A DNA stretch of 64,000 nt from a virus (IMGVR_UViG_3300037010_002844:1-64000); one strand, 5' to 3'. Shown: positions 18,177 to 58,216, counted from the first letter of the stretch. Notes: generated by a model from the letters alone, not told the origin. A program made the numbers and translations.

Positions 18177-18448
18177 AGGTCAAGCCTGAAATTGGCGAGT
18201 TCGTCACCCACGTTCACTGGAACGGCGCCCGAGAGGGCGTCATTTGGCAAGTTTTGGCACACAAGGGTTCCAAGGTTCGAATCGACCCGATCTTCACCGT
18301 CACTGGCCCGTCGATCCTCAAGGCCAAGTGGGTTCACTATAGTGAGATTGAACTGATCGACCTTGTCACGTTGGGTTCCTCGCGGGCTCAGATCGACATC
18401 ATCATCCAGGAGCTGGTCCGTCGGCGTTCCAGCGAAGTCACCGCCTGA
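18173..18448 (+). CDS. small SH3/KOW-like family protein
   Basis: IGEFVTHVHWNGAREGVIWQVL motif. ATGA coupling. Confidence 0.4.
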   Translation: MKVKPEIGEFVTHVHWNGAREGVIWQVLAHKGSKVRIDPIFTVTGPSILKAKWVHYSEIELIDLVTLGSSRAQIDIIIQELVRRRSSEVTA

Positions 18449-18752
18449 TTGGCGGCGTCGGCAACGGAGAGAAATCGCGAACAAACGGGTCCTGAGACAC
18501 ATAGGGTTCCGGAGTCGTCGGCGGCACAGGACCCCAGCAATCTTCGGGATCTTCCTGTGGATCTCTTAGGTGTTCAGGTAGCTCGTCGTCAATGGGCGTG
18601 CCGCTCTGCAACTTTCCTAGCTGCTCACGGTTGTTGATGTCGGGCGACATGGCATTGCGTGCCGCGGGCTGCGGCGGTGAGGCCCAACCACCGCCGGTCT
18701 CAATCAGGATTGTCCTGATGATGTGCCTTAGTTCACCTAGCTTTATCCGCAC
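18438..18752 (-). CDS. N-terminal targeting-motif family protein (104 aa)
   Basis: Starts MRIKLGELRHIIRTILIETGGGWASPPQP, which is the shared N-terminal motif followed by a Gly/Pro linker. Confidence 0.45.
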   Translation of the reverse strand: MRIKLGELRHIIRTILIETGGGWASPPQPAARNAMSPDINNREQLGKLQSGTPIDDELPEHLRDPQEDPEDCWGPVPPTTPEPYVSQDPFVRDFSPLPTPPIRR

Positions 18753-18801
18753 ACAATAAGTAGGCGAGTACTCAGGCCGTAGCAGGGGTTAGGATAGACG
18801 C

Positions 18802-19035
18802 ATGACGACACTGGCAGTTGAAGTCACTTGGGCCCGACAGCCCGCACCTGACGAGACGGTGACGATGATCATCGCCTTGACGTTGCCGCCCCCGTTGCGG
18901 GCGACGTTTCCGAGTTCCAACATCGTGGACGTCAACATTCCGCCCAACTTTATTCCCAACGTCATCGGCAGGACGTTCATCGTCTTTGACGACAACTACG
19001 AAAGACTCGGTTCGGGAAGGATCGTTCGCCAATGA
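18802..19035 (+). CDS. small hypothetical protein (77 aa)
   Basis: Preceded by GTTAGGATAGACGC directly before the ATG. Confidence 0.4.
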   Translation: MTTLAVEVTWARQPAPDETVTMIIALTLPPPLRATFPSSNIVDVNIPPNFIPNVIGRTFIVFDDNYERLGSGRIVRQ

Positions 19036-19145
19036 AGCCCAAGATTCTGATGATCCTGTCTGACATCCTGTGGAAGGTCGGCCTCCATCAGTTCAGCCTG
19101 CGTTGTTACATCAATGCGAGGTTGATGCAGCAGTGATGGTGTCTC

Positions 19146-19391
19146 ATGTGGTCCCCCGGCACGTTCTTGCACCTCCGTAAGGAGTACGTCAACAGCATTC
19201 TTGGCTTTAGCCGCAGCTCGACCGCGCCACGGGCCACAACAGCGTTGGTGATTGCCATCCGCGAGACGGGCTTCGGCACGCGCGGTCGCAAGTGGGACGC
19301 CTTACTGTTGATCAATGGGTATATCTTCGAAGTTGAGGACGCCTGGAAGAAGGAAGACATGTTCTACGTCCACGTGTGGAATCACAAATGA
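19146..19391 (+). CDS. small hypothetical protein (81 aa)
   Basis: ORF only. Confidence 0.3.
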   Translation: MWSPGTFLHLRKEYVNSILGFSRSSTAPRATTALVIAIRETGFGTRGRKWDALLLINGYIFEVEDAWKKEDMFYVHVWNHK

Positions 19392-19829
19392 GTAGGACGA
19401 TCGTCATCGGCGACCTTCACGGATGTTAGAGAGAGGCCATCGACCTCAGATCAAGTAATCTTCCCGGGCGACTACGTCAATCGCAGGCCCGACAATGCCA
19501 AGTGCTGCGATCTCGTCCGCGAGCGTGAGCAGGTCCAGGATTCACCCGCCGGCGTGCTGGGAAATCACGAGGACCACGTTCAATGCATCGGTCGCGTGCC
19601 CAGCATGCCCGACAGTCACGTGAAGACTCGAGCGCAGCTGCAGTCAGAGCATTACGAGTGGTTTCGTTCACTGCCTCTGCTCATCAAGGTATCAGACCAT
19701 AACGTGGTGTGCGTCCATGCGGGCATCGATGGCGGCGCAGTGTTCGGTCATGACCTTCACGCTCTCGTGTTGGGAGATGAGTCCGACCGCATCGTCACCG
19801 TCAAAGGCGTCCACGATTACGGCAAATGA
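19388..19829 (+). pseudogene. disrupted lambda-PPase/ApaH-like metallophosphoesterase (Ser/Thr phosphatase family)
   Basis: MSRTIVIGDLHGC ends in an in-frame TAG. The other motifs lie in the +1 frame: VIFPGDYVNRGPDNAKC (GDxVDRG) and GNHEDH (GNHE), then the ...VHAGIDGG ORF. An in-frame stop plus a frameshift are needed to assemble the enzyme. Confidence 0.55.
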
Positions 19830-19943
19830 CATCGAGGTCGCCAGACCGAGGAGGAAATCATCCGCGGTGGGCACATCAAGCTATTCCTTGTCCGCGGTAA
19901 CGTTGGCACCTTCAGTTGACCCTCGCGCGCCTATTTACCCTCG

Positions 19944-22289
19944 ATGAGGGCGAAGGTACAAGAAGTCGCACTGCTGTTGGAGATCAGTTTCAACGGTTTC
20001 GTTGATCGCTTTAAGCAGCTTGCCAAGCAGATCAAGGCGACAGCTATCGTCAAGGCCATCGACTCGCTAGACGATGCGCCCCCAGGCCTCAAGGCCAAGC
20101 TACATGACGCATTCGATGCCTGGGTGGATTCTGGCGGGCTGAGCAACAGCGGTTACTACAGTGAAGTTCTCTTCACTAAGCTGAAGGCTGCTTTGGGCAG
20201 TCTGTCAGACGATCAGCTCGATGATCTCTTTTCAAAGATCACAAACTTTGAGGCGGTCCCAAGCCACGCTGACAAGAGCATTCAGGACATTGCGTTCAAC
20301 TCGATCCTGAAGCGACTGTCACACATCCCAATTCCGATCCTGCGTGACCTCAGGGAAGACCTGCAGGACCTGCAGCTTAACGTCAAGAACCACGCCACGG
20401 CTCGTGACTTCTTGAATTACGCCCTGGGCGCAGTGATTGAAAGCAACCCGACTGAAAAGCACTTCAGGTTGCAGTCGTCCAAAGGTTACTTCACGCGCTG
20501 GTTGGAACAACTGGACAGCGAGGACGCTGAGTCCGAGATCGACAAGCTCGACAAGATCATCGCTGGGTTTGAGGCCAAGAAGGCCGAGGCCGCCTGGGAC
20601 GTGGTCGACGCAGGCCGCGAATTGCTCGACCTTCTGAAGGAGAAGGTTCCGAGCGACCTAAAGCCCTACTATGAGACCGTAATCTCATACGACTACCACA
20701 TTGGTATGTCGGACTACAATTCCATCAACACGTTCAATGCGTATCTTAACGAGGATGAAAACGAGTTTCTCGAAGAGTACGCAAGGATTGCAGAACGCTC
20801 GAGCAGGCTAGCGCGCAAGGTCATCACGCAGATCAAGGCAATGCTCGAGCGCGAGACTCCCAAAGCCGCCAGGTACGTGCAGACCCTGAAGGGTGAACTG
20901 ACCGAGGAACAGCTGCAGGACCTGCAGACGCTCGCGGATTACGCTCGCTTCACTCACAAGTTGGGCGGCGCCAAAGTTTCAAGGGACTACTTCGGCAAGA
21001 GCATTTGGAACTTTCCCAACGACTTTACTGACAAAATCGACAAGATCACCAAGATCGATCCCGAGGTCGGACCTAAGTCAATGACACGCTTGCGAGCTGT
21101 CATGGCCTACTCGCAGATCATCAACTCCTCTGAGTTGCATGAATACATCAAGAACCTGAGAGACGATCTCGCTCAGGTCAAGGAACAGCTCAAGGCAAAG
21201 GACGATCCTCAATTCATTGCGTTGATCGATGGCCTGATCAAGTTGTCGGACACCATCAGATCGATGCCCGATGATGACATCGTGGATACGTTTGAAACGC
21301 TTGGACCCGAGAAGTCATCGAACGAGACCTACTTTTGGGGCAGCATCATTTCGACAATGCGCTCCAAAGGTGATGACTTCACCAAACAGCCCAATGATCT
21401 CAAACGCGCCCTGAAAGCATGGGCACTGACCTCAGAAGGTGACAGGCCAAAACTGCTGCAGCGCGCCAAGAAGATCGCCAGCAGTTGGATCAAAAAGACG
21501 AAGGCGAAGAACGCCGAGCTGTTGAAGAAGGCGCCTCCTGAAGCAGAGCCCTCAGCGCCCCTACAGCAGTGGGCCTTTGCCGACCAGCGCAAGGGAAAGG
21601 TTCCGTATGAGGCAAACTCGAAGGAAGAGCAGAAGTTGTACAATGACCTGTATGCCCACTTCGTCAACAACGATCCGATCTCACCCGCTCACGCTAAGCT
21701 GATCCAGTCCTTCCTGCAAAAGGGTCAATACGCTAGCGTCTTCCGCGAGCCTAAGCAGGCGTACGTCCTCCGTGGCATGAACGTTCCTGCAGATTATCTG
21801 CGCAAGGCCTTGAAGCTAAAGCCCGGAGATGATCTGCCACCGAAGGGAAACAAGGCCGCATCATTCACGTTCACGCCGTTGTCAGGTCGCGGGGCCACTA
21901 GCTGGTCATCAACGTCGCAAGGTGCTGTCAAGTTTTCAAACGATGGAGGTTACGGTTCTTACGCCATCATCATGGTCGCCTCTGTCAAGAAGAATCCAAA
22001 CAAGTTCTGCATGGGACCGGGCGCTCTCTACAACGTTCAGGGCTTCGATGAGTACGAGACTGAAGACGAGGTCATTGCCTTGGGCGAGATCAATGTCTCA
22101 AAGGTCTTCTGGTCAATCAACTCCATCACCAAGTCGACGCCGGGCCTGCCAAAGGGCGGTGTTGGCCACAAGACGTTGAAGAAAAAGAAGAAGGTGGCGA
22201 CCAATAAGTCAGTGGCTAAGAAACCGATCGCCAAGAAGAAACCTGTGGCCGCCAAGAAGCTCGTCAATAAATCCACGAAAAAGAAGTGA
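19944..22289 (+). CDS. large hypothetical protein (781 aa) with lysine-rich C-terminal tail
   Basis: Long, predicted mostly alpha-helical. C-terminal tail KKKKKVATNKSVAKKPIAKKKPVAAKKLVNKSTKKK is histone H1-like. Confidence 0.5.
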   Translation: MRAKVQEVALLLEISFNGFVDRFKQLAKQIKATAIVKAIDSLDDAPPGLKAKLHDAFDAWVDSGGLSNSGYYSEVLFTKLKAALGSLSDDQLDDLFSKITNFEAVPSHADKSIQDIAFNSILKRLSHIPIPILRDLREDLQDLQLNVKNHATARDFLNYALGAVIESNPTEKHFRLQSSKGYFTRWLEQLDSEDAESEIDKLDKIIAGFEAKKAEAAWDVVDAGRELLDLLKEKVPSDLKPYYETVISYDYHIGMSDYNSINTFNAYLNEDENEFLEEYARIAERSSRLARKVITQIKAMLERETPKAARYVQTLKGELTEEQLQDLQTLADYARFTHKLGGAKVSRDYFGKSIWNFPNDFTDKIDKITKIDPEVGPKSMTRLRAVMAYSQIINSSELHEYIKNLRDDLAQVKEQLKAKDDPQFIALIDGLIKLSDTIRSMPDDDIVDTFETLGPEKSSNETYFWGSIISTMRSKGDDFTKQPNDLKRALKAWALTSEGDRPKLLQRAKKIASSWIKKTKAKNAELLKKAPPEAEPSAPLQQWAFADQRKGKVPYEANSKEEQKLYNDLYAHFVNNDPISPAHAKLIQSFLQKGQYASVFREPKQAYVLRGMNVPADYLRKALKLKPGDDLPPKGNKAASFTFTPLSGRGATSWSSTSQGAVKFSNDGGYGSYAIIMVASVKKNPNKFCMGPGALYNVQGFDEYETEDEVIALGEINVSKVFWSINSITKSTPGLPKGGVGHKTLKKKKKVATNKSVAKKPIAKKKPVAAKKLVNKSTKKK

Positions 22290-22299
22290 TAAACGCACT

Positions 22300-23169
22300 A
22301 TGAAGATAAAGGTAAAAGACCTACGCCGCACCATCCGCGAGGCACTCGTTACCGAAGTCGGTATCGATAAGCTCAAGGGCATGAAGGGCACCTTGGGCTC
22401 CACCCATGAGATGAACGTGGCCAAATTGGTGGGCTCGGAGGAGAAGTTCTTCGTCAAGTTCTCTGACATCGCAGAGGACCTTTGGAACGAAGGCGACCCC
22501 GATCCTAGCATGCAGTGCATGAGCGAGTACCTCGCCTACAAGCTGTATGCCCTCTACCCGGGCGTCAAGATTCCCAGCCGTATTGAGTTGGTCTATGATC
22601 CTAACAACTCACGGGTCGGTATTGCCACGGCTGCTGTCAAAGGCAAGATGGCGCTCGGTCGCATCAAGCCTCAGGCGCTGGCGAAGCAGCTCGAGGCAGG
22701 CGTCTACGTCGACATTTTCCTGGCCAATTACGACGTCATCGGTACTGGCGCCGGCAACCTGATATCGTCGGACGACGGCTCAGTCACCCGTATCGACCCG
22801 GGTTCATCGTTCAAGTACCGTGCACGGGGTGGTCGCAAGGGACCTGGCTTCAACGACAAGGCTGGTGAGCTGAACACAATGTTGGACCCTGACTTCGGCT
22901 ATGGCGAGGCAGCCGGGTCAGTCTATCAGTACGCTGACCTCAAGGTCGCAGCCAAGGAGTTCATGACAGTAAGTTGGCCCGCAATCGCCGCGCGTATCGA
23001 TGAGGTTCAGGGGTCAGTCGCGGCTGAACTTGAGGAGAACGGCATGGACGACCTGCTGCAACAGTGGCACGCCGAGGTCAACGACATCAAGAAGGTCCTG
23101 GCTGGCCGTTACAAGGTTGTTACAATGCACGCGCAGAAGGTCCTCGCTGCCGACAAGAAGACACGTTGA
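22300..23169 (+). CDS. N-terminal targeting-motif family protein with a PI3/4-kinase-like catalytic signature (289 aa)
   Basis: Starts MKIKVKDLRRTIREALVTEV. Internal IFLANYDVIGTGAGNLISSDDGSVTRIDPGSSF resembles the GDRHxxN...IDFG catalytic/activation loops of PI3/PI4-kinase-like atypical kinases. Confidence 0.45.
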   Translation: MKIKVKDLRRTIREALVTEVGIDKLKGMKGTLGSTHEMNVAKLVGSEEKFFVKFSDIAEDLWNEGDPDPSMQCMSEYLAYKLYALYPGVKIPSRIELVYDPNNSRVGIATAAVKGKMALGRIKPQALAKQLEAGVYVDIFLANYDVIGTGAGNLISSDDGSVTRIDPGSSFKYRARGGRKGPGFNDKAGELNTMLDPDFGYGEAAGSVYQYADLKVAAKEFMTVSWPAIAARIDEVQGSVAAELEENGMDDLLQQWHAEVNDIKKVLAGRYKVVTMHAQKVLAADKKTR

Positions 23170-23546: not shown

Positions 23547-23813
23547 TCACTTTGAGCGCCAGGCAACACGGCCCCGCGTCAGGTCGTAAGGCGAGACTTC
23601 AATCGTCACTCGATCGCCGGGCAGCAGGCGAATGTGGTGGAGCCGCAGCTTGCCCGACAGGGTGCACAGCACCTTGATGCCATTGTCACAGATGACCCTA
23701 AACAGGGTTCCCGGCAACGCTTCGTCGATCATGCCCTGAAGTTCGATCGAGTCCTCGCGCTCGGGCTGCTCTTGCGCCGAGTTGCTCCAGTTCTTCTTGT
23801 TCTTCTTTGCCAT
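23547..23813 (-). CDS. infA: translation initiation factor IF-1 homolog with lysine-rich N-terminal extension
   Basis: [70 protein letters not shown] aligns over its length with bacterial IF-1 ([67 protein letters not shown]). Confidence 0.85.
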
Positions 23814-23976
23814 CGTCTTGTGTCTCGTCGTCACCGAGTTCGGGCGGGGGTGCGGCACCATTGCCGCCATTGTAGCCACCCTCTTGTCCGCCGCTAAAGA
23901 TTCCTGCGCTCCAGCGCATGTTGCGCTCGACTTCTTCTCGAATTAGAGCGCGCAGTTCGCGGATGGTGATCCTCAT
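23698..23976 (-). CDS. N-terminal targeting-motif peptide ORF overlapping the infA start
   Basis: [45 protein letters not shown], which is the motif followed by a Gly/Pro linker. The frame then overlaps the first 115 nt of the IF-1 gene in the -1 register. Confidence 0.4.
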
Positions 23977-29778: not shown

Positions 29779-31164
29779 TCACTTTCGATCGAAAGAGCGC
29801 TCAACCTCTTCGACCTCATCGTGCGAGACCTTCACGATTTCGACATCCTTGTCGAGGTTGTAGTTGGGATCGGGCGGGTCGGTGTCAGGCCCGTCTTCCT
29901 CGTCATCCTCTTCAATTTCGACCTTCGTCATCTTGAGGTGCTTGCGGGTCAGGCGATGCATCCGCTCGACCTCATCGACATCCTTGTACTTCTCGAGACG
30001 CTTGACGCGGTCGGCCAACTCCTTGGTTGAGGCCTCGGCCTCTTCGGCGCTCATGAAACGTCGGCGCTTGACGTACTCCTGGATGAAGGCGATGGGCCAA
30101 TCCTTGACACTTTTCATGGCGTCCTTCAGTTCGGGACCCAGCACGGCCTCGATGACCTCAGGCTCCATCTCGTTGATCAACAACAGCTCATCGAAGCGAC
30201 CGGGGCGCAGAATCGCCTCGTCCAGCGAGTTGCGGTCGTTGACCGTCGCGATGACCAACTTCACGTGACGTTGGAAGAACTCCAGCGTCTCCAGGAGCTG
30301 CGCCTGAGCGTGAGCCCGATCGAAGTCATCCAAGATGATCGCGTCTGGTTCGAAGATGCTGATGGCCTCGAACAACGTCGAGCTCTCCAGGCCCGCCACA
30401 TCTTCCACGCGGATGCGGAAAGAGCGCATCTTCAGCTCGGTGACGATGGTTCGCGCCATCGTCGACTTGCCGGTTCCCGGCGGCCCGTACAACATGACAG
30501 ACCGCGAGACGTTGGCATCGATGCAGCGCTTCAGATAGGCCGCGTAGTTTGAGGCCCGCCTCGAGGGCATCGAGTGGAAAGCATCGTCCAATTCGAACAA
30601 CACTCGGGATTCATCGTCATGCAGCACCAGACGCTTGTTCTGGCGCATCACCAGGTTAGCGTCCTTGAACTGTTCCCAAAGCAGGCGCTTGATAACGTTG
30701 CGAGCGTCCTGCAACCGCGCGGTCTCGACGTAGATGTTGTCGATGGCCGACAACTTGGTGTTCATGATGTACCCACACTTGATGCCTTCGACATCGACGA
30801 TGCGGATGATGTTGTTCTCGTCTGACGTTCGAATTGTCTCATACGGATACCCGGTGATCACCTTGATGATCGTCTGGTTGAAGTCCCGCGAGTAGGGCAG
30901 GTTCCACTCGTCACCTGCGAAGTAGTCCTCGCTCCACAGCTCAACCTCGTCAACAAACACCTTGCCGATGGCGAAGGCAGCCTTGACGCCGTTCCACCAA
31001 TTGGGCTTCTCGAGGAAGGGCGCGACAGCGGTGAACACCTCGGTTCCCAAGGCGATCGTCTTCTTGACCTTGCTGATGTTGAACGCGGCCTTCAATTCCT
31101 CCACGAGCGTCCTTTCTTTCTCGAGGCTGGGATCACTCGCCGGGACACGGCTCTTCTTACGCAT
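29779..31164 (-). CDS. classical AAA+ ATPase with 200-aa N-terminal domain
   Basis: Walker A LYGPPGTGKST, Walker B IILDDFD, second region of homology ATVNDRNSLDEAILRPGRFD. Confidence 0.8.
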   Translation of the reverse strand: MRKKSRVPASDPSLEKERTLVEELKAAFNISKVKKTIALGTEVFTAVAPFLEKPNWWNGVKAAFAIGKVFVDEVELWSEDYFAGDEWNLPYSRDFNQTIIKVITGYPYETIRTSDENNIIRIVDVEGIKCGYIMNTKLSAIDNIYVETARLQDARNVIKRLLWEQFKDANLVMRQNKRLVLHDDESRVLFELDDAFHSMPSRRASNYAAYLKRCIDANVSRSVMLYGPPGTGKSTMARTIVTELKMRSFRIRVEDVAGLESSTLFEAISIFEPDAIILDDFDRAHAQAQLLETLEFFQRHVKLVIATVNDRNSLDEAILRPGRFDELLLINEMEPEVIEAVLGPELKDAMKSVKDWPIAFIQEYVKRRRFMSAEEAEASTKELADRVKRLEKYKDVDEVERMHRLTRKHLKMTKVEIEEDDEEDGPDTDPPDPNYNLDKDVEIVKVSHDEVEEVERSFDRK

Positions 31165-31681: not shown

Positions 31682-32596
31682 TCAGATCTTCAACTCCATC
31701 AAGCGCTTGCCCAAGTCCTGGAGGAAGGGCACACCATACTTCAAGTTGCCTTTCGCCTCGAGATCGTGGACCAAGAACTCAGGCAGCACTTCGTCCTGGT
31801 GACGGGCGCCCGCGATTCCCCATGCGATGGCCGCGACAGAGTCCGTGTCGCCGCCCCACTCGATGACCTGGTCCATGATCTCACGGAGAGAGCGCTTGTG
31901 AATCAACAAGGTGTTGACGGCCCAGGCCGTGTTGATGCCCACGTCGTACGGCGAGTGCTTGACATTGCCTTGAACCGGGCCCTCCCAAGGCACACGGAAT
32001 TTTTCGAACAAGGGTAAGCGGGGTTCCAACCACCCCTGCATTGCAGAAAGTTTGCGATGATCGTAGAGCGCGTAATGCGACATCAGGGCGATTGCCATCG
32101 CCGACTGCACGCCCTCGTAAGAGGCGTGCGTGGTGGTCGCCTGAAACGCTGCGACTGTCAGCAACTTGTCAACGTCTTTGATGACGCCCAAGGGCACGGC
32201 ACGCATGGCCGCGCCATTCTTCGTCGAATTGGGCCGCAATGTGGCGCGGAGCTCGTCAGCTGACTTCACCGACTCTAGGATCGCCTGGAACCCACGGGAA
32301 TACCCATCGCGTGGATCACGCTTGAAGGTGTCGAACCAGGCGGCGACCCAGTCGTTGTAGCTAGCGGACGTTCCCTTGTTGATCAGGGTCTCAGCCACCG
32401 CGATCGACATCTGCGTATCGTCAGTGTACATGCCAGGACGCAGGCCTTGGTGACCCGGGTGCTGCATGTAGCCCTGGAAGGCGCGGATTTCCTTGAACTC
32501 CGGCTCATCGGGATGGAACTTGATGTACTCGAACCCGGCAGCGTAGGCATCGCCCAAAGCGATGTGCAGCAGCATGTTGTCGTTGCGGTATCTCAT
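31682..32596 (-). CDS. ADP-ribosylglycohydrolase family protein
   Basis: MLLHIALGDAYAAGFEYIKF...MYTDDTQMSIAVAETL matches the DraG/ARH N-terminal signature. Start placed at the MRYRNDN internal Met, which is an assumption. Confidence 0.65.
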   Translation of the reverse strand: MRYRNDNMLLHIALGDAYAAGFEYIKFHPDEPEFKEIRAFQGYMQHPGHQGLRPGMYTDDTQMSIAVAETLINKGTSASYNDWVAAWFDTFKRDPRDGYSRGFQAILESVKSADELRATLRPNSTKNGAAMRAVPLGVIKDVDKLLTVAAFQATTTHASYEGVQSAMAIALMSHYALYDHRKLSAMQGWLEPRLPLFEKFRVPWEGPVQGNVKHSPYDVGINTAWAVNTLLIHKRSLREIMDQVIEWGGDTDSVAAIAWGIAGARHQDEVLPEFLVHDLEAKGNLKYGVPFLQDLGKRLMELKI

Positions 32597-32606
32597 GTTA
32601 TTTCTC

Positions 32607-32807
32607 TTATGAAAGCCACCAAATGACCAGCATCGTGAATGCGCAGATGATAGCAATGACCATCACGCCTGAATTGAACTTGCGCTGAAACTCTGCGTCG
32701 GCCTTGCGGTACGCCCGCTTCTGGTCTTTGTTGAGCGTCAGCCACCAACGATGAAATCGTTCGCGGCGTTGCCGATCCTTGCGGTTTCTGCGCATCCAGC
32801 CCAACAT
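32607..32807 (-). CDS. small basic tail-anchored membrane protein
   Basis: GGAGGTG RBS before MLGWMRRNRKDRQRRERF. C-terminal TM VMVIAIICAFTMLVIWWL. The longer ORF 32607..32990 is probably an upstream extension. Confidence 0.4.
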   Translation of the reverse strand: MLGWMRRNRKDRQRRERFHRWWLTLNKDQKRAYRKADAEFQRKFNSGVMVIAIICAFTMLVIWWLS

Positions 32808-33444: not shown

Positions 33445-34344
33445 TTACTTCATTCGACCAACAGCACGCAGCAATCGCTTGTTGTAACCGCCAAACGAAC
33501 CCGCGAGCAGGACGCTAGGGTCGACCCAGCGGACAACGCCCGATTCTTCGGTGTCGATTTGGCCCTCAACGCGGCCGGTAAACGTGATAACGTGGTAACC
33601 TCCCTCGTCGACGTCTTCAAAGACTTGATTCAAGTCAGTGATGTGAAGGCCCGTCTCTTCTTCCAGCTCACGGGCCGCTGCAGTCGCTGCGTCCTCGCCT
33701 GGGTCGATCTTGCCACCGGGCAGGCCAAAGTCGCTTGGGTCATTCTTCCCGGAGACTGCGAGGATCTTGCCAGCGCGATTCATCACCAACACACAAGCCG
33801 CACGAGGCAGTGCGGCGGCGTCCTGTTGGACCTTGGCGTCCACGTCAGCCTCATCGTCCAGGATGTTACGATTCTTCTGAGCCAACGTGGCGTCCCCGTA
33901 GCGCAAGTTGCCGGCGACGCCGTCGCGGCCTGCAGTGTTCAACGACTTGAAGCCCGTCAACACTTCGTTGACGAAGACCTTTAGCAGCTCGTGAGACTCT
34001 CGGGCCGGCGTCCTGTAGGGACCCATATCGGGTGACTCTGCGGATTGATCGTCCTGAACGTCAAAGCCTGCTGCGTCGAGGTCGGTGATGAACCGACCAC
34101 GCTCTTCGGGAGTCATCTCCACGAAGATAAAGCGCTCAGTGTCAGCCATGTCATAGGCCCCCGACGACTGACGCCAGGGTTCTTGCGTGGCATTCCACTT
34201 GGCGAGCACCTTGCGTAGCCTCGACCAGTGATCCTGTGACTGCTCAAACGTCCACGTCTTGGACAGGCGGACGTTGCCAGCTCGCCAAGGACCGACCTTC
34301 AATGGCAGAAACTTGCTCATTTCTTCGGTTGTGGGGTTGGACAA
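33445..34344 (-). CDS. Nudix hydrolase with N-terminal extension domain
   Basis: Nudix box GGKIDPGEDAATAAARELEEETGL (GX5EX7REUXEEXGU) in the C-terminal half. Confidence 0.7.
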   Translation of the reverse strand: MSNPTTEEMSKFLPLKVGPWRAGNVRLSKTWTFEQSQDHWSRLRKVLAKWNATQEPWRQSSGAYDMADTERFIFVEMTPEERGRFITDLDAAGFDVQDDQSAESPDMGPYRTPARESHELLKVFVNEVLTGFKSLNTAGRDGVAGNLRYGDATLAQKNRNILDDEADVDAKVQQDAAALPRAACVLVMNRAGKILAVSGKNDPSDFGLPGGKIDPGEDAATAAARELEEETGLHITDLNQVFEDVDEGGYHVITFTGRVEGQIDTEESGVVRWVDPSVLLAGSFGGYNKRLLRAVGRMK

Positions 34345-38613: not shown

Positions 38614-39789
38614 TCAGCCCGAGCCACTGGTGGCGGCCAAGATGATGCCGAGCATCGACCAATCGATAAAGACTTTGCCGGCGACGAGGTCATCGAGGTC
38701 GTACACCTCCACGTAAGTCAACTCAGTATCGTTGGCGATCCCGTGAGTGACGCCGGAACTGTGTTCGTCCTCCAGGCGATTCATTTCAAGTGCTGTCAAC
38801 TCAACAGCGTAGACCACGCCATGATGGGTCGACAGGGCAGCACACATCTGCCGCGAGCCCACGTAACGTAGCCGCGTGGGATCAATATTGATGCCCATCT
38901 CTTCTTCCAACTCGTGGGCCGCCACCACGCGGGCATCCTGACTCAACTTCAGCGAACTACCACCAGGAGCCTCATATACGAAGCCTGCATTGTTGCGAAC
39001 AGAGCTGCGGAACTCCTTGACAAGGGCGACCCTCGTCCCAAGGACATCGGAGTCCGGCCTGTGATACGCCACCACGACGAAGACGTCCGGCCGCGAGAAG
39101 ATGAACTCGTTGGTCTTGTTGCGTTTCTCGGCCGCCACATAGACATCAACCTTCAAGGCATAGCAGAAGGTCACTGCTTTGTTGGGCCCAATGCGGAACG
39201 ACCACAGCAACTGTGCGCCGTCTAAACGATTACCAACAGCCCTCTGGGCCGCGTGCCACGAGCGGAACGCAGGCTGGTGCCAGATATGCAGTGGAACTGA
39301 ACGTTCCCCGCCGAATCGAAGTGCCTTGTGCTTCGTCCTCTCGAGTGCCTGCAGCAGCGTGTTCTGGAGCGTGCTCTCTACTGGGACGCCCTCGAGACGA
39401 GCACGGTGCGCCAGGTAGCGCATGTTATAGGCCTCGGGCGGGTAACCCAGGACCGTCTTTCCGGCATCATAGTACATACCGAACTCGACGTTCGTCGTCA
39501 GGGCAGGTGCCACCTGCATGTCGCGAGGAACCCAGAAGACGACCACGTCGCTCATGTCGAGGTGTTTCTTTTCCCATTCGACCTGATGATCGAAGCCGCA
39601 GTTCCACTTACCATCGCGGGGCAGCGGCACGAAGACGACGCCATCATAGCCCATCTCTTCGAGGAGCTTAAGGGCATCCGGTCGCCAATTCAAATGCGCA
39701 TCAGAACGGGGAGAAGGCCCCGCCAAAAAGATGGACTTCTCAAACGAAGCCGGCGCCTCTTCGGCTGCATAGACGATCTGCATGTTCAT
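38614..39789 (-). CDS. nucleoside 2-deoxyribosyltransferase-like (DRTase/Rcl-like) domain fused to Nudix hydrolase
   Basis: N-terminus SIFLAGPSP...DGVVFVP has a DRTase-like Rossmann signature. C-terminus carries the Nudix box GGSSLKLSQDARVVAAHELEEEMGI. Confidence 0.55.
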   Translation of the reverse strand: MNMQIVYAAEEAPASFEKSIFLAGPSPRSDAHLNWRPDALKLLEEMGYDGVVFVPLPRDGKWNCGFDHQVEWEKKHLDMSDVVVFWVPRDMQVAPALTTNVEFGMYYDAGKTVLGYPPEAYNMRYLAHRARLEGVPVESTLQNTLLQALERTKHKALRFGGERSVPLHIWHQPAFRSWHAAQRAVGNRLDGAQLLWSFRIGPNKAVTFCYALKVDVYVAAEKRNKTNEFIFSRPDVFVVVAYHRPDSDVLGTRVALVKEFRSSVRNNAGFVYEAPGGSSLKLSQDARVVAAHELEEEMGINIDPTRLRYVGSRQMCAALSTHHGVVYAVELTALEMNRLEDEHSSGVTHGIANDTELTYVEVYDLDDLVAGKVFIDWSMLGIILAATSGSG

Positions 39790-42179: not shown

Positions 42180-42362
42180 ATTTTCTCCTGACTCGTTCTT
42201 TGCGAATTGTGATCATTGCAGCCCTTCGCCACGCCGTCAATGATGCAGGCGACGATGAGCGCCTCGGATGACGAAGAGCCCCGAGAGCGGGTGCGGATGT
42301 TCATGTTCTATGAGTACCACGTTAGGGTCATGGTTTGCACCAGCGCGGAATACTTACTTCGC

Positions 42363-43333: not shown

Positions 43334-43591
43334 CTACTTCTGCTTTGCCAATTTCACGAAGACATCATAAGGGATCATCTTCAGTGCCTTGACGGCCATA
43401 TCGACGGTCTTGAAGTATTCAACAAGGTCTTTTTCATCCTTGATGTCACCCTTCATCACTGCCTCGATGACGCGGTCCTGCAAGTCCTCGCGAATACGCT
43501 CCTTTTTCATGTAGTCCTCAGAGGCAGAGATCGCCTCGCGGATCAGGCTGCGCAGCCTCGACAATGACAGCTTCATCCGAGTAAGTATCAA
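43334..43591 (-). CDS. N-terminal targeting-motif family protein (85 aa)
   Basis: MKLSLSRLRSLIREAISASEDY. Confidence 0.45.
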   Translation of the reverse strand: MILTRMKLSLSRLRSLIREAISASEDYMKKERIREDLQDRVIEAVMKGDIKDEKDLVEYFKTVDMAVKALKMIPYDVFVKLAKQK

Positions 43592-44766: not shown

Positions 44767-45060
44767 TCACTGAGCAGGATCAGTCAATGCCTCGATGAAC
44801 AAGTCGAACGTATCTTTGTGCGCCACGCCACGCTGAATCTGGACGACACGGAGGGCAGCCGTCAGCGTCTTCATGTCGAGCTTTTCTGCGTACTCCTCGA
44901 TGATTTCCTTGCGGTCCTCCTTGAGGAGGTCGATCTCGTTGTCGACATTGTTGATCTTGCCGATGAACTCCTTGACGAGGGCGCGTAGGGCGTTAACCTC
45001 ATCCGGCATCATCTCGCCGATGTTATACTGTTTCTCAGGACCCTTGCTTCGCTTTGCCAT
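44767..45060 (-). CDS. hypothetical coiled-coil protein (97 aa)
   Basis: ORF only. Confidence 0.35.
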   Translation of the reverse strand: MAKRSKGPEKQYNIGEMMPDEVNALRALVKEFIGKINNVDNEIDLLKEDRKEIIEEYAEKLDMKTLTAALRVVQIQRGVAHKDTFDLFIEALTDPAQ

Positions 45061-46211: not shown

Positions 46212-46554
46212 CTCGACTAAATACCACCGGGCGCCCCGACATTTCAGACCAACGTCGCGCTAGTTCGTAACGGTTGATGTTGACTTCCTTGCGCAGGGGT
46301 GCCGGCAACGTCTTCAACAATTCACGATTGATGACCTTCCACTCATCCACGTGAGCGGCATACGTAAAGACATCAGCAAGGGCCTCGACTATTTTCGGGT
46401 CCATTCAGCAACTCCGACAGGATCTTGAGAGCTCGATACAGGTTCTGTCGAAGGAACTCAATGTCTGCGGCGTCCTGCACTTGGTCAACACTACCCGACA
46501 CTGGGTACTTGATTTCGATATAGAAATCCTCATCGACTGACGGTGGATTGGCCT

Positions 46555-47019
46555 TCACCCTTCCTCCTTATGAAAGGCCTCATGCAGGCGATTGACGGCC
46601 TCTGCAATCAACGCACGTTGGTAGGCGTGAATGATCGGCAGCTCGCCGACCCTGAACCAACGCGCGTCGGCGACCTCAGAATCTGGATCGCTGGCATCAG
46701 GCACCCGTGAGCACGATTGCTGTGCCAGGTACGAGACCACGGTCTTGTCTTCATGCTTGTAGCCGGCATACGCGTCAGGCAGACGATCCTCTAGGATGAC
46801 GTCAATTCCTGCTTCTTCACGGGTCTCACGGGTCGCGCACTGTTCCGGTGTCTCGCCTTCGTGCATGTGACCCTTGGGAATGCCCCACGAGTCCTTGTGA
46901 GCGAACTGCTTCACCAGCAAAATACACGTGTCATCCCAGGTTTCTCCAAACCTGTACACCAGCGTGCCACAAGAGATGGTCTTTCGGCGCTCCTTGTGCT
47001 CCTTGTTCTTTGCTCCCAT
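46555..47019 (-). CDS. Nudix hydrolase
   Basis: Nudix box GIPKGHMHEGETPEQCATRETREEAGI. Start at MGAKNKEH is preceded by GTGTAGGATAACTAGC. Confidence 0.7.
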   Translation of the reverse strand: MGAKNKEHKERRKTISCGTLVYRFGETWDDTCILLVKQFAHKDSWGIPKGHMHEGETPEQCATRETREEAGIDVILEDRLPDAYAGYKHEDKTVVSYLAQQSCSRVPDASDPDSEVADARWFRVGELPIIHAYQRALIAEAVNRLHEAFHKEEG

Positions 47020-47054
47020 GCTAGTTATCCTACACTGGATCCGGAGATTTTGAC

Positions 47055-47705
47055 ATGGCAACTATCGGTCTGATCGCGATGTCGGCGAAACCATTTCACG
47101 CAGGTCACGATGGCCTGGTGCGGTGGGCAGCCAAGGAAAATGATGAAGTCCACCTATACGTAAGCCTCAGCGATCGCATGCGGCCTGGTGAGCTGCCCAT
47201 CCTTGGCTCCGACATGGAGCAGATCTGGAAGAGGTTCATTGAGCCCTCGCTGCCAGGCAACGTCCGCGTGACGTACGGCGGTTCGCCTGTCCGAAACGTC
47301 TATGAAGACATTGGCGAGGCCAATGAGGCCGGCGACACCGAGGACATCTTCACCATCTACGCTGATCCCGAGGACCTTGCACAAAACTTCCCGGAAAAAT
47401 CGCTCGACAAGTATGCTGGAAACCTATTCCACAATGGGCAGATTATTCTGAAGCCGATCGAGAGGACCCAGACGGTTAACGTTAGCGGCACCAAGATGCG
47501 ACAGTTCCTGTCCACGGGAGACAAGAAGGGCTTCATTGCCAACCTGCCAAAAGAAATCGACCGCGAGGCCGTCTGGAACATCTTGTCGGCGCCCAAGGCC
47601 CCGGCAGCCCCTGCCAAAAAGCCTGCAGCGAAGAAGCTCACAAGCAAAAAGGTCAGGGGCGAGGCCTTGATCCGCGACTTCGTGTCTCGGTACCTAAAAG
47701 GCTGA
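47055..47705 (+). CDS. HxGH nucleotidyltransferase (NMN adenylyltransferase/NadM-like) with Ala/Lys-rich tail
   Basis: IGLIAMSAKPFHAGHDGLVRWAAKENDEVHLYVSLSDR resembles the archaeal-type NMNAT motif (G.F.GRF.PFH.GH...). C-terminal tail APAAPAKKPAAKKLTSKK. Confidence 0.55.
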   Translation: MATIGLIAMSAKPFHAGHDGLVRWAAKENDEVHLYVSLSDRMRPGELPILGSDMEQIWKRFIEPSLPGNVRVTYGGSPVRNVYEDIGEANEAGDTEDIFTIYADPEDLAQNFPEKSLDKYAGNLFHNGQIILKPIERTQTVNVSGTKMRQFLSTGDKKGFIANLPKEIDREAVWNILSAPKAPAAPAKKPAAKKLTSKKVRGEALIRDFVSRYLKG

Positions 47706-53160: not shown

Positions 53161-53532
53161 TCAATCGGGCCGCATGGCGAGGTCCTTGTAGACGTCGTCA
53201 GCGTACTTAGCAAATTCCTTGTCGAGTTCTGTGACCTGCTCGATGTCCCTCGTCAGCAGCTCCACCTTCACGGTATCCTCATCTAGGGTCAACCGCGCGT
53301 GGTGTCCAACCTGTTCCTCGTATTCCATCAAGGCCAACACAAAGGGATTGCGATCAGACTGCCTGCGAAACTTATACGTCTTCGTCAGATGGGCTGGCGA
53401 GCCTTCCTTGACCCAACGATCCATCGGCACCACGGGCAGTTCAACCCTACGGGTATTGACGGGCAGGCGACCGAATTGCATCGGTCTTCGCGCCACGTTG
53501 ATGAACTCCTCGTGTAGGTCCGTCAACTTCAC
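53161..53532 (-). CDS. hypothetical protein (123 aa)
   Basis: ORF only. Confidence 0.35.
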   Translation of the reverse strand: MKLTDLHEEFINVARRPMQFGRLPVNTRRVELPVVPMDRWVKEGSPAHLTKTYKFRRQSDRNPFVLALMEYEEQVGHHARLTLDEDTVKVELLTRDIEQVTELDKEFAKYADDVYKDLAMRPD

Positions 53533-54296
53533 AGCAACACCACTCCACCGACGACGGCCGACTCTGTGAAGGAAGAGCCATTGGTCCAGATCCGACGATC
53601 GCGGTCAATGATGCAGGAACCGCCCTTCCACTTCAGGTCACGTTCTTCACCCACGCGGTTGCTGACGATCAAGTTGGCTCGAGTGTCCTCGACCAGCTCG
53701 ACCCAGGCCGAGTCAGGATAACCGAAGGCAGCGCCCCAGTTGGTCAACAGTGCAATGGTGTCGACTGAGCCTTTGGGATAGAACTTGTGACCGGGCTTGA
53801 AGAACTGGTACGATTCCCGGTACTTGTTCATGGCATCCCGACAGATCAGCACACCCAGGCGACCGACCGGAGTTACCAGGACCTCATGTTGAACATCTGA
53901 AGGCTGCGCCCAAAGATTGTCATTGCCCCATAGGTTGTGTTTCTGCGAATTTCCTACGAGGCCTCCAGGGCCCACGGTAGCCGCTGAGTTGTACAGCATG
54001 CCTTCGCGGAGCTCTGGATAACCGAAGACGATGTGACAGTTGAACCGTCGAGCGATCGGCAGGAACGCTTCTGTTTGGTACCCATCACGGGTCTGAGCGC
54101 ACTCCATCGCCTCGCGGGGATTGCGGAAGACATAGCCGGAGGTGCAGAGCTCGGGCAACACGATCACGCGAGCGCCCTTTGCAGCAGCCTCGAAGGCCAA
54201 CTGCTGCGCTGTCGCGAGGTTCTGCCTCACGTCGAACAGCTTAGGCTCGAACTGAACTGCTGCAACAATTACTGCGTTAGGTTGCCCGAAGTCCAT
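53529..54296 (-). CDS. carbon-nitrogen hydrolase (nitrilase superfamily)
   Basis: AVQFEP...RVIVLPELCTSGY...GVLICRDAMN has the CN-hydrolase Glu/Lys/Cys layout. Confidence 0.6.
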   Translation of the reverse strand: MDFGQPNAVIVAAVQFEPKLFDVRQNLATAQQLAFEAAAKGARVIVLPELCTSGYVFRNPREAMECAQTRDGYQTEAFLPIARRFNCHIVFGYPELREGMLYNSAATVGPGGLVGNSQKHNLWGNDNLWAQPSDVQHEVLVTPVGRLGVLICRDAMNKYRESYQFFKPGHKFYPKGSVDTIALLTNWGAAFGYPDSAWVELVEDTRANLIVSNRVGEERDLKWKGGSCIIDRDRRIWTNGSSFTESAVVGGVVLL

Positions 54297-54304
54297 GCAT
54301 CACC

Positions 54305-55756: not shown

Positions 55757-55758
55757 GC

Positions 55759-56076
55759 TCAGTCCTTGGGACCGGGTGTCGAGGCAGTTCCGAACTTGGC
55801 GTCAGTGAACTTGCGGCCAAAGTACAGCGTCAAGATCGGAATAAAGTAAGCAGAGCATGCTGCCACGTCAAACGGTCTGATCGTCACGCCGCCGATCTTC
55901 TCGACCAACGAGACAATGTAGGCCAAGGTCGTCACCCAAAAGGCGACGAAAACCATCGTCACAGTGACAGAGCCATAGCCTTTTGTGTCCTTGATCCAGT
56001 ACCACGCTGGTTTGACCTCAGTCGGGTCAGGAGTTGTGTTATCGTCTGCCATGGGAGCCTCCGAAGTGTCCGGCAC
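55759..56076 (-). CDS. small two-TM membrane protein (holin-like topology)
   Basis: VTVTMVFVAFWVTTLAYIVSL and FIPILTLYF. Confidence 0.4.
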   Translation of the reverse strand: MPDTSEAPMADDNTTPDPTEVKPAWYWIKDTKGYGSVTVTMVFVAFWVTTLAYIVSLVEKIGGVTIRPFDVAACSAYFIPILTLYFGRKFTDAKFGTASTPGPKD

Positions 56077-56097
56077 GGTCTAAATAGGACGCTCGCG

Positions 56098-56613
56098 TTA
56101 TTTGCTGGTCACCTTCGACACCGTGTAGACAGTCAACAACGTGAGGCCAATCCCGCCTGCGGCGCCCAGACCCACGTAGACGGGCATCCAAGAGTTTGAC
56201 GACTGCGCCTTCTTGAGTTGCTCTTCGGCCGCATTGAGCTCCTTCTGCTTGGCGTCAATCTGAGCCTGCAACACCTTCTGGTCTGCGTCTGACTTCGCTT
56301 TGGCTTCAAAAAGCTTGAAATCGCACTGGGCCTTGTCCTCGCCCCTCGCGCGATCTACCTCGATCTTGATCTGATCGTTGGCAGCGTGTAGCTGAGCGAT
56401 CACCGTCGCCACAGCCTTAGGGGACAGGAGGATGCCAGTGAAGGGCGCCTTGTCGCCCTTCTTCATCGGCGAAATGACTGCGCCTAGGTCTTTTTCACCG
56501 TCAGGGACGGTGATGTCAGGCAACGTCACGCCGTTGTCGTCGGCCAACGCCGGGCGAACATAGCTAAAGATCAATGTGAAACAGAGGATAAGGGAGAAGA
56601 GTCTTTTCCACAT
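56098..56613 (-). CDS. secreted coiled-coil protein with C-terminal TM anchor (171 aa)
   Basis: Signal peptide MWKRLFSLILCFTLIFSYVRPALA. C-terminal GLGAAGGIGLTLLTVYTV. Confidence 0.4.
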   Translation of the reverse strand: MWKRLFSLILCFTLIFSYVRPALADDNGVTLPDITVPDGEKDLGAVISPMKKGDKAPFTGILLSPKAVATVIAQLHAANDQIKIEVDRARGEDKAQCDFKLFEAKAKSDADQKVLQAQIDAKQKELNAAEEQLKKAQSSNSWMPVYVGLGAAGGIGLTLLTVYTVSKVTSK

Positions 56614-56627
56614 GCCCTCATACTACA

Positions 56628-57020
56628 TCACGCAGGTAGGACGATCTGAAAGCCAGTCGCCGCGCTCAACTGCTTGGCGAGCTCGTTAGGATTCGAACCG
56701 TACTGCTTGACGATGTCCTCGATCTCCTTCTTCTTCTTGTCGTCGAGGTCCTTCTTGGCAGCATCATACTGTGCCTGAACTGCGCTCAGAGCATCCTGCA
56801 GGCGCTTGACATCGAGATCATGTTGGCGCTCTTCTTCAGCGCGAGCGGCGTTGATTTGCTTGATTTCATCATCGTGAGCGTCCTGAATCTCCTTCAGGCG
56901 CTTAGCGTAGTCACTACCCTGCCCGCGAAACAGGATGAATCCGACGATGACTCCAAGGACTAGGAGGCCGATCTGCCAGTACTTCTTGACGAATGCCCAA
57001 GTTGTTAGCAACCACGTCAT
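56628..57020 (-). CDS. N-terminal TM plus coiled-coil protein (i-spanin-like topology)
   Basis: MTWLLTTWAFVKKYWQIGLLVLGVIVGFILF, then a heptad-rich region. Confidence 0.4.
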   Translation of the reverse strand: MTWLLTTWAFVKKYWQIGLLVLGVIVGFILFRGQGSDYAKRLKEIQDAHDDEIKQINAARAEEERQHDLDVKRLQDALSAVQAQYDAAKKDLDDKKKKEIEDIVKQYGSNPNELAKQLSAATGFQIVLPA

Positions 57021-57616
57021 ATTCAGTTAGGCTTGTCACGCCCCTCCTTCTTCTTGCCTTCGGAGAGCTTGGAATCAAGAGAGTTGCCATTCATGACCTT
57101 AAGAATCTGCGCCTGGATGGCGTACAGCTCCGAAATCGCCTGATGATGCGACTGAACCGCCTGCGCGACTCCGACGACTGACTTGGTCAATATGTTGACG
57201 TTGTGTGCCAGGTCAAGGATGTCGTTCTTCAAGTCCATGACCTTCGCTGAAGTATCAATGGCCTTGTCGATTAGCTTGTTAAGCAAGCTCTTCTTTGGCG
57301 TCGGGCTTTCCATCTTGAGTTCCATCTTGTTCGTCCCTGTTGATCAAACTGTACAACGCCTCTGAGTCCAGTTCACCGAAACCTTCGATGCGACGCTTTT
57401 TGGGCTTGCCGTCGATCACCTCACGCAACTTGCGATTGACGAGGCCGTCGACGATGGCAATTGCCCGAGGCGAGCCTTCCGCCACTTGACGAGCAAACTC
57501 GTCAAAGACATCCTGCATCGAAATGCCGTGTTGGAAGAGCCGCGCCCGCAGGGCTGCGTGAACTTCCTTCGTCAGCTTGACGTGGATGCATTTTCGTGAC
57601 TGGAAGATGTCATGTC

Positions 57617-58216
57617 TCATGCGGGAGCGCCTCCGGCACCACCCCCAGCTCGGGCGGCGGCGGGAGCCGGGAACTCATCGTCGGCTGCCTCTTCAGGCGA
57701 CTTACCGATCTCGATGCCGTGCTCAGAACGCAGGTTCTCCTTGAACGCCTCTACGACTTCTGGGGCATAGTTCTTGCCCAGGAAGTTGGCCGCTCGACGG
57801 AGCAATGTGTTGCGCAACTCCAACAGTGACGCGGCGTTGTCGATCAGGCGCATCACAGAATTGGCATAAGAGTCCATGTCGATGGAATCGACGCCGGGCT
57901 TCGAGGGCGCGTCGCTGCCTTCGTCGCCGAGGCCGAACTCATCATCGCCACCTTCATTGTCACCCTCGTCATCGCCGGCCTCGACAATGCGCCGGACCGC
58001 GCGACGCCAGTCCTTGCCTTCGGTCTTGGCGGACTTGGCTTCGCTCTCGTATTCTCCGAGGTAACGATCGATCTGCGCGTCGACAGAGTCCTCGCCGTCC
58101 TCACGCTCAGGTTCCTTACCGGCCGTGGGATCATTGCCGCCGGCCTCACGTAGAAATTCCTCGCGGAGGATTCGCTTCAGATCGCCGACCTTGATCCTGA
58201 TCTTTCTGTCCATCAC
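57617..58216 (-). CDS. N-terminal targeting-motif family protein, acidic (199 aa)
   Basis: MMDRKIRIKVGDLKRILREEFLREAGGNDPTAGKEPE, which is the motif followed by a linker. Confidence 0.45.
   Translation of the reverse strand: MMDRKIRIKVGDLKRILREEFLREAGGNDPTAGKEPEREDGEDSVDAQIDRYLGEYESEAKSAKTEGKDWRRAVRRIVEAGDDEGDNEGGDDEFGLGDEGSDAPSKPGVDSIDMDSYANSVMRLIDNAASLLELRNTLLRRAANFLGKNYAPEVVEAFKENLRSEHGIEIGKSPEEAADDEFPAPAAARAGGGAGGAPA

Follow-up and report, generated by a model that had tools for sequence, protein, structure and literature searches.

A conserved N-terminal peptide on unrelated proteins of a huge T4-like phage, a candidate prohead-core targeting propeptide

The viral DNA considered here (IMGVR_UViG_3300037010_002844:1-64000, a stretch of 64,000 nucleotides (nt) with about 57% G+C, henceforth the window) belongs to a source contig of 309,481 bp, that of the kinase-like protein entry P0001, and is, judged from its sequence, part of the genome of a T4-like huge phage. 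Six open reading frames (ORFs) of the window open with a near-identical N-terminal tag, M-[KR]-I-T-x-x-x-L-R-x-[ILM]-I-[RK]-E-x-[LIV], and six others carry shorter or weaker forms of it, the tag proper spanning 14-16 residues (Table 1). Two more carriers of the same phage, an LRV-repeat protein of 1019 amino acids (aa) and a 264-aa protein, lie just past the right end of the window. A reading made from the sequence alone (henceforth the sequence-only reading) had already noticed the same short motif on otherwise unrelated ORFs; all eleven N-termini that it listed translate as given, and in an all-against-all blastp the carriers were alike only in their N-terminal 15-20 residues, so that nothing but the tag is common to them. 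Two of the starts had to be moved: the one placed at 43591 is the ATG at 43576, while the one at 58216 is most likely the ATG at 58213, with the tag beginning at residue 5. A further copy, at 7157-7504 (-), falls outside the range 18438-58216 to which the motif had been assigned, and the Gly/Pro-rich linker described after it is found in some carriers but not in all.

Table 1. Tag-bearing ORFs of the window, followed by the genes for the vault-protein homologue and the AAA ATPases (bits, score in the tag matrix; regex, core expression given in the text)
Feature	Position	Strand	Tag form and evidence
Kinase-like carrier, 289 aa	22300..23169	+	Canonical, MKIKVKDLRRTIREAL (residues 1-16, nt 22300-22347); 37.6 bits; ATG at Met position
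Acidic Gly/Pro-rich carrier, 92 aa	23698..23976	-	Canonical; 39.0 bits; ATG at Met position
Gly/Pro-rich carrier, 104 aa, GTG start	18438..18752	-	Canonical, (M)RIKLGELRHIIRTIL, then IE-TGGG; 38.1 bits
Carrier, 80 aa	43334..43576	-	Canonical, MKLSLSRLRSLIREAI; 32.8 bits; TACTTA 11 nt upstream
Acidic carrier, 198 aa	57617..58213	-	4-residue extension MDRK, then canonical IRIKVGDLKRILREEF; 35.6 bits
Carrier, 167 aa	42363..42866	+	Canonical, MKLTAKQLRNIIRETI; 37.3 bits; TACTTA 12 nt upstream
Carrier, 461 aa	47708..49093	-	Variant; helix core LRHIIRQML at residues 13-21, then LVE, IVE; regex match at 49057
Carrier, 372 aa	45093..46211	-	Short form, MKRLKEHQVLREYVRTVLKE-GDD; regex match at 46184; TATTTA 12 nt upstream
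Basic carrier, 109 aa	34682..35011	-	Short form, MRLLEEYVRSVLVE; translation; form as in the 46211 carrier; weak alone
Carrier, 483 aa	54305..55756	-	Weak variant, MSKVTVTEEAIREMVREVL; 12.4 bits; regex match at 55726
Acidic carrier, 94 aa	58910..59194	-	Weak variant, MKTLTEADVLRIMREEW; below matrix threshold, tentative; TACTTA 19 nt upstream
Carrier, 115 aa from ATG 7504	7157..7504	-	Variant, MSAALLKEFIKETLDLLDE; regex match at 7489; 7.6 bits; TACTTA 11 nt upstream
Possible further copy	44767..45060	-	MPDEVNALRALVKEFI; regex match at 44988; uncertain
Major vault protein (MVP) homologue, full length, 859 aa	11150-13729	+	Pfam MVP_shoulder 3e-28
AAA ATPases	3045-4205; 29779-31164		Pfam/PHROG scans

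Written as the core expression [LIVM][RK]x[LIVMFYAT][LIVM][RK][EQTSD]x[LIVMFW], the motif had 14 matches in the six-frame translation of the window, 10 of them within the first ~25 residues of plausible ORFs. When a greedy set of 118 ORFs was considered, the first 30 residues held 9 matches against 0.15 expected from residue shuffles, the observed total being reached by 0 of 2000 shuffles and the bias of the matches to the N-terminus having a binomial p of 7e-6, which result bears out the N-terminal enrichment that had been anticipated. Because the expression was written from the same data, these p-values are optimistic, and a separate test was hence made on DNA outside the window. A scoring matrix of 16 columns, built from 26 tag instances, assigned 33-39 bits to six strong canonical copies (23976-, 18752-, 22300+, 42363+, 58201-, and 43576-), and set these apart from six weaker or shorter variants (49093-, 46211-, 35011-, 55756-, 59194-, and 7504-). 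The synonymous codons vary from one copy of the tag to another (Leu CTA/CTG/TTG; Arg CGC/AGG/CGT/CGA); the tag is therefore conserved at the protein level, and a repeat at the level of the DNA is ruled out. On sequence grounds we also dropped a ribbon-helix-helix N-terminus, whose second helix is not conserved, and a signal peptide, the tag being highly charged.

Regarding the carriers themselves, Pfam and PHROG scans of ten of them matched no family, the 461-aa carrier included. The 92-aa acidic protein belongs to a 12-member family in the related loci, with a conserved motif, and the 104-aa protein to a 13-member family that is about 50% identical in loci L005 and L007-L009; for the carrier at 57617..58213 the public gene call likewise gives 198 aa. 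The copies at 46211 and 35011, which the sequence-only reading had classed as weaker, are indeed tag-bearing but represent a genuine short form, LL[RK]EY[IV]R, which form stands in for the canonical tag in the kinase-like orthologues P0067, P0071, and P0086 and is therefore a true variant. In the uncertain copy at 44767..45060 the sequence fits the L8/R9/V12/K13/E14/I16 spacing if the start is the second Met of an internal pair.

The DNA outside the window comprised loci around homologues from viral and metagenome contigs, about 774 kb in total. At a threshold of at least 12 bits the matrix found 110 matches there against 5 in a reversed-sequence control. Of 89 distinct matches, 70 had an ATG, GTG, or TTG precisely where the Met was expected, most of the others lying within a few codons of a start, and the N-terminal matches represent 29 families with unrelated bodies. 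The consensus drawn from one representative of each of 23 families is M1-[KR]2-I3-T4-x-x-x-L8-R9-x-[ILM]11-I12-[RK]13-E14-x-[LIV]16, with L8 conserved in 23/23, R9 in 21/23, I12 in 21/23, and E14 in 20/23; a tripeptide [LIVMF]-x-E with its Glu at residue 14 is present in 20 of the 23, and in several families an L-x-E is followed by GG. The predicted amphipathicity of the helix was confirmed over these families (mean hydrophobic moment 0.52 vs 0.38 in shuffles). Among the tagged proteins of the relatives are enzymes, namely a phosphoribosyltransferase, a cytidylyltransferase-like protein, and a DnaQ-like exonuclease. A 353-aa carrier (L050:797-1855) bears the tag twice, as an N-terminal MKMTERALRRMIMETLLEGDV and, at residue ~227, as GLNESGLRMMIRSILEGDV, in what looks like an internal duplication. 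A tblastn search of the phage collection with a 27-aa tag gave no match, the first 50 kb of Microcystis phage Mel-JY01—too distant a genome—contained no tag, and in the literature, including full-text searches for LRRIIRE-type strings, we found no paper describing this 14-16-residue motif or its spread.

The best sampled of the carriers is the kinase-like protein, with about 100 metagenomic homologues down to 40% identity, most of them tag-bearing. The strict expression is passed within the first 32 residues by 69 of these; those that fail mostly have a recognizable degenerate tag, a handful have truncated starts, and a clear loss of the tag occurs only in the most distant homologue (31% identity). 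That the tag is mostly kept over about 100 homologues argues that it is under selection. In the AlphaFold2 model of the carrier (pLDDT 86), residues 1-20 stand apart from the fold as a helix of low confidence, and the top Foldseek matches of that model are all protein kinases (E ~5e-5, TM about 0.35), in agreement with the sequence-only reading; D145, N153, and D166 are invariant in the family alignment. The protein may have a protein-kinase-like fold, and its catalytic activity is putative. In Yersinia phage fHe-Yen8-01 the kinase-like domain is also part of a protein of 2146 aa whose annotation, 'phage particle associated', is a hint in favor of packaging. Upstream of the kinase-like gene, the 781-aa ORFan 19944-22289 (+) has a C-terminal segment of ~190 residues that is met again beside the kinase-like gene in almost every related locus, and in L005 three times, suggesting a conserved partner or module of this carrier.

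The kinase-bearing contig L035 encodes, in addition, a T4-type capsid protein, an acidic scaffold, and a small tagged protein. A search with the L035 capsid protein retrieved 80 related head loci sharing the order gp21-type protease - p138 - X - Y - p195 - scaffold - capsid protein, with the gp21-type protease upstream of X in the 17 loci that extend far enough. Both X and Y bear the tag: X, of 130-170 aa, starts MK[IL][TS][KR]xxLKx[IL]VKEC[LI]VEILSEG, and Y, of about 82 aa, starts MKLTxxLLKKIIEEEV, a tblastn of the latter against the phage collection giving no match. The protease of the lineage matches phrog_207 at 1.5e-53 as well as 2614 phage records, T-even gene 21 among them, and its homologues carry Pfam PF03420. 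The lineage proteases P0221-P0226 end in ...DRIDRVLNEILSYKVR, a sequence faintly like the tag helix and like the VKECLVEILSEG of the X protein; T4 gp21 is itself processed at its C-terminus.

The capsid protein of the window phage itself (P0169; 633 aa; Pfam Gp23, PF07068) came from a protein-database search in which a capsid protein of matching GC served as query; it shares the 309,481-bp contig with P0001. Its locus, L219, comes from JGI sample 3300036715, which sample also holds exact copies of window genes (L002, L216), and has the order X - Y - p187 - scaffold (667 aa, L219:1418-3421) - capsid protein, the last being 84% identical to that of L134; X there begins ...MSRQQLKAIVKECLVEILQEG (its start also given as ...MSRQQLKAIVKECLVEILQEGLG) and Y starts with MKLTSKLLKKIIEEEVGKFG. 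Of 120 capsid proteins of the lineage, 117 have a conserved V-[LI]-[KR]-E at residue ~60; this site, just upstream of the conserved mature N-terminal region, is the predicted maturation site of the capsid protein. This tetrapeptide and the I-[RK]-E14 at the end of the tag belong to the same tripeptide class.

The nearest records in the phage collection are LR756508 (with a 48% identical capsid protein), Mel-JY01, and Flavobacterium phage immuto, the lineage having no cultured member. LR756508, an uncultured published genome of 484 kb, was assembled as a whole record and scanned, and contains about 25 N-terminal tag carriers, 22 of which are inside an 80-kb block terminase-portal-protease-scaffold-capsid-tail sheath/tube, all on the same strand (binomial p = 9e-15); three occupy the interval from protease to scaffold, the place of X and Y. 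This genome has no MVP homologue (tblastn against the phage collection at E <= 1e-3, local tblastn at E <= 0.01) and no homologue of the chaperonin (GroEL), the proteasome-like proteins, or the kinase-like protein, only generic AAA matches at 1e-5 being obtained. Since LR756508 lacks MVP, GroEL, proteasome-like, and kinase genes, the head machinery is the sole partner set common to the tag-bearing genomes.

In phage T4 the capsid-targeting sequences are 10-residue N-terminal propeptides, the sole feature common to a diverse group of internal proteins, which they direct to the scaffolding core (PMC9026906, PMC3012670), and gp21 cuts after L/I-X-E (PMC9026906). We propose, at a probability of about 0.68, that the tag is a T4-type prohead-core (capsid) targeting propeptide of greater length and different spelling. 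While the head is being assembled, its short strand and amphipathic helix at the N-terminus would dock the carrier onto the scaffolding core, around which the gp23-type shell would then close; the gp21-type prohead protease would cut after Glu14 (I-[RK]-E) or at a nearby h-x-E, freeing the cargo inside the head, and the cargo would be ejected with the DNA into the next host. On this reading the tagged proteins of the window—the kinase-like enzyme, the small acidic Gly/Pro-rich proteins, and the ORFans of 370-480 aa—are the internal or ejected proteins of the phage. As in T4, we are dealing with a short peptide placed at the very N-terminus of phage proteins that are otherwise unrelated, with I12-[RK]13-E14, of the L/I-X-E type, at its end in 20 of the 23 families, and with a head built from a gp23-family capsid protein and a separate scaffold, the gp21-family protease having been seen directly only in relatives. 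What was observed directly is the tag, its fixed distance to the start codon, its conservation, the two carriers in the head block, the T4-type head genes, and the agreement of the tag's end with the predicted maturation site of the capsid protein; core binding, cleavage, packaging, and ejection are what we infer. The sequence-only reading was right in recognizing a targeting peptide, with T4 as precedent, in the shared N-terminus of heterogeneous proteins, but it preferred vault cargo loading; the evidence favors its main alternative, packaging into the virion.

Several points weigh against this interpretation. The window phage's own protease was not among the 120 matches listed, its carriers in the window are not adjacent to head genes, and X and Y, whose designation as core proteins derives from gene position only, have no similarity to T4 gp67, gp68, or gp22 (hhalign probability below 1%). 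E14 is not invariant, nor is the residue that follows it consistently small. The tag has no sequence similarity to the T4 MKTYQEFIAE, which string is found in PMC8442874, and the matrix finds nothing convincing in the head locus of RB51, where gp24 starts MAKINELLRE, gp22 MLKEQLIAE, and gp21 MNEPQLLIE. Since length and consensus differ and neither matrix nor hhalign detects similarity, the tag would be an analogue or a variant, and no member of the sequence family of the T4 tag. Among the carriers of the relatives there are metabolic-type enzymes, whose role inside a capsid is not obvious, and the second, internal copy in L050:797-1855 indicates that the tag is not always terminal. Packaging and cleavage, moreover, have been deduced from sequence.

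The tag might instead be a docking helix for a hub other than the capsid—a membrane patch, a replication or assembly factory, or a chaperone—of which X and Y would be just two more clients. Its amphipathic character is compatible with that role, some carriers are enzymes expected in the cytoplasm, and in the window they are scattered among non-structural genes. We nevertheless consider such a hub unlikely: the head and structural genes are the only partners conserved between the window phage and LR756508, in whose structural block the carriers are clustered, the I-[RK]-E at its fixed position fits both the specificity of the protease and the capsid site, and the charge of R9, R13, and E14 is atypical of a membrane anchor.

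The readings of the tag as MVP cargo signal, as degron, or as mark of a chaperonin client were all rejected on their co-occurrence across genomes. An N-terminal degron, timing the destruction of the carriers by an AAA+/proteasome-like system of the phage, would find its machinery in the window, which encodes two proteasome-beta-like ORFs (62038-63192), the AAA ATPases, and a chaperonin; yet LR756508 bears about 25 carriers and no proteasome-like or chaperonin homologue, a degron would be odd on the conserved head-module proteins X and Y, and the tag is kept on a conserved enzyme across about 100 homologues. We regard this reading as very improbable.

The vault reading, favored at first, holds that the tag docks proteins in a vault-like shell formed by the phage MVP homologue. 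The MVP homologue in the window is genuine, and tagged proteins do occur near 62-71% identical MVPs in close relatives. MVP homologues are present in at least 165 viral (IMG/VR) contigs, viral MVPs having already been reported in a 2023 bioRxiv preprint (10.1101/2023.11.10.566534). In 285 kb around the MVPs that are at least 47% identical to that of the window (15 loci) we found about 17 genuine carriers, all beside the 62-71% identical MVPs, whereas the surroundings of MVPs about 40% identical (1.26 Mb in about 75 other viral contigs) contained no genuine tag, the low-scoring matches there being off start codons. In the phage collection, tblastn at E <= 1e-3 detected MVP only in the published huge-phage genomes LR756500, LR756501, and LR756503, and LR756508, with about 25 carriers, has none; X and Y, for their part, are tagged as head-module proteins in many phages. 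The known vault cargo, PARP4, binds through its C-terminal INT domain and not through an N-terminal helix. We therefore abandon the vault cargo loading of the sequence-only reading, to which we leave hardly any weight, and the role of the MVP here appears unrelated to the tag. That in the MVP-encoding members the tag also, or instead, loads enzymes into a phage-built vault-like compartment in the infected cell is highly doubtful. Vault loading, if true, would give prokaryotic or viral vaults their first cargo code; our result removes an attractive but unsupported link between tag and vault protein.

That the tag has no function, being a generic low-complexity helix, a chance likeness, or an artefact of annotation, is effectively refuted by the counts, since, common as short amphipathic K/R/E/L/I helices are and insufficient as the weakest copies (59194, 35011, 55756) are when taken singly, the N-terminal excess over shuffles, the 110 matches against 5, the start codons exactly at the Met position, the column-specific conservation, and the synonymous codon variation all speak against it.

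Some observations concern the surroundings of the carriers. The hexamer TA[CT]TTA, of which the window has 14 copies on both strands together, lies 10-19 nt upstream of six carrier starts (at 18757-18762, 43582-43587, 42351-42356, 46218-46223, 59208-59213, and 7510-7515), as opposed to 5 of 85 other ORFs (Fisher p = 3e-4), and a further copy, at L219:1391-1396, precedes the phage's scaffold gene by 21 nt. The hexamer may co-regulate carriers and head genes, as an element of the late-promoter or -10-like type. An IF1/eIF-1A-like (S1-fold) ORF at 23547-23879 (-), about 70% identical in relatives, overlaps with its annotated 5' part the 3' part of the carrier at 23698-23976; since the overlap in relatives is only 16-67 nt, the IF1-like gene probably starts further downstream here. 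Between two other carriers lies ORF 58213-59010 (-), for which the public call is 236 aa and the precomputed Pfam assignment the C-terminal domain of Fe/Mn superoxide dismutase.

As to the rest of the window, the phage collection held no near-identical record, and a 706-aa ORF gave weak matches to Mel-JY01 and to two published huge-phage genomes. Further genes encode a Cpn60 chaperonin, a GH25 lysozyme, a tRNA nucleotidyltransferase, and a flap-type exonuclease; contig walking reached only non-structural genes past the right end and added nothing past the left. NAD- and nucleotide-related genes are clustered at 31682-32656, 33445-34344, 46555-47061, 47055-47705, 53529-54296, and 38614-39789, comprising an ADP-ribosylglycohydrolase, two NUDIX, a cytidylyltransferase-like, a CN-hydrolase, and a nucleoside 2-deoxyribosyltransferase-like gene, to which the tagged cytidylyltransferase-like enzyme and phosphoribosyltransferase of the relatives may be compared. 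The two proteasome-beta-/Ntn-hydrolase-like ORFs, 62038-62583 (-) and 62587-63192 (-), are adjacent paralogues with the same beginning, MTCI; Pfam Proteasome is matched by one of them at 4e-6, and a homologue is present in L007 but not in LR756508. Two small ORFs, 16527-16862 (+) (111 aa) and 17325-17684 (+) (119 aa), include stretches that are about 50% identical to conserved portions of gp23-type capsid proteins, corresponding roughly to residues 296-331 and 79-113, respectively, of the Mel-JY01 capsid protein, and both have a precomputed Pfam Gp23 match; they stand among small paralogous ORFs that share a GD[LI]V motif and form an array at 15.3-18.4 kb and 26.0-27.0 kb.

If the prohead-core interpretation is true, the packaged head proteins of such phages, probably injected with the DNA, could be read from metagenomic sequence by means of one short motif, and would offer candidate proteins for anti-defence and for host takeover in the first minute. 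The set of predicted cargo is of unusual size and variety, including the kinase-like protein, a phosphoribosyltransferase, a cytidylyltransferase-like protein, an exonuclease, the 1019-aa repeat protein, and many small ORFans. We give even odds to the wider proposition that, in uncultured huge T4-like phages, the tag marks out an 'ejectome' readable from the sequence, with a dozen to several dozen packaged proteins in each genome, kinase-like and nucleotide-/NAD-related enzymes among them. The tag would, in addition, provide a second, independent capsid-targeting sequence for the engineering of protein delivery with T4-like capsids.

Among the systems with which the tag may be compared, the recruitment of proteins to the eukaryotic vault (PARP4 INT-MVP) has in common with it the MVP homologue encoded in this genome, but depends on a folded C-terminal domain instead of an N-terminal helix, and tag and MVP do not co-occur across phages. 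The cargo-loading peptides of encapsulins resemble the tag in that a short peptide is in principle enough to send unrelated enzymes into an HK97-fold shell. Those peptides, in contrast, are usually C-terminal, have another consensus, are not removed by a protease, and belong to cargo genes that adjoin the shell gene, whereas the shell here is a true phage capsid that also packages DNA and the carriers are dispersed; in Pfam and PHROG scans of 35 window proteins no encapsulin-type family appeared, the only HK97-type shell being the gp23-family capsid protein.

In phages phiKZ, 201phi2-1, and SPN3US many internal or ejected head proteins are cut by a gp21-related protease after Glu (PMC9026906, PMC7411985). 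These are likewise large phages whose head and ejection propeptides are processed by diverged gp21 homologues; their propeptides, however, are heterogeneous, of considerable length, and for the most part paralogous, a single short tag common to them has not been described, and cleavage takes place at S/A/G-X-E or A-X-E, with a small P3, as opposed to the I/L of this tag.

The closest parallel is the targeting sequence of T4 (MKTYQEFIAE of IPI-III, and the propeptides of gp24, gp22, gp21, and Alt), 'CTS-like' sequences having been reported for T-even relatives as well (PMC9026906). Both are short N-terminal peptides on unrelated, fast-evolving proteins, both end in the L/I-X-E tripeptide of the protease, and in this phage the capsid protein is of the gp23 family and the scaffold acidic, with a gp21-family (PF03420) protease in its relatives; the putative cargo, too, includes a host-modifying type of enzyme, the Alt ADP-ribosyltransferase in T4 and the kinase-like protein here. 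The tag differs in having 14-16 residues instead of 10, in its spelling, MKITxxxLRxIIRE versus MKTYQEFIAE, with no detectable homology, and in being known from sequence alone. At least 12 putative cargo genes in this 64-kb window plus the 2 just outside it, and about 25 in LR756508, stand against 4 in T4; the predicted cargo here reaches 1019 aa and includes metabolic-type enzymes, many carriers being acidic and not basic. The principle is thus known from T4, and what is new is the spelling, the length, and a much larger and more varied set of predicted cargo.

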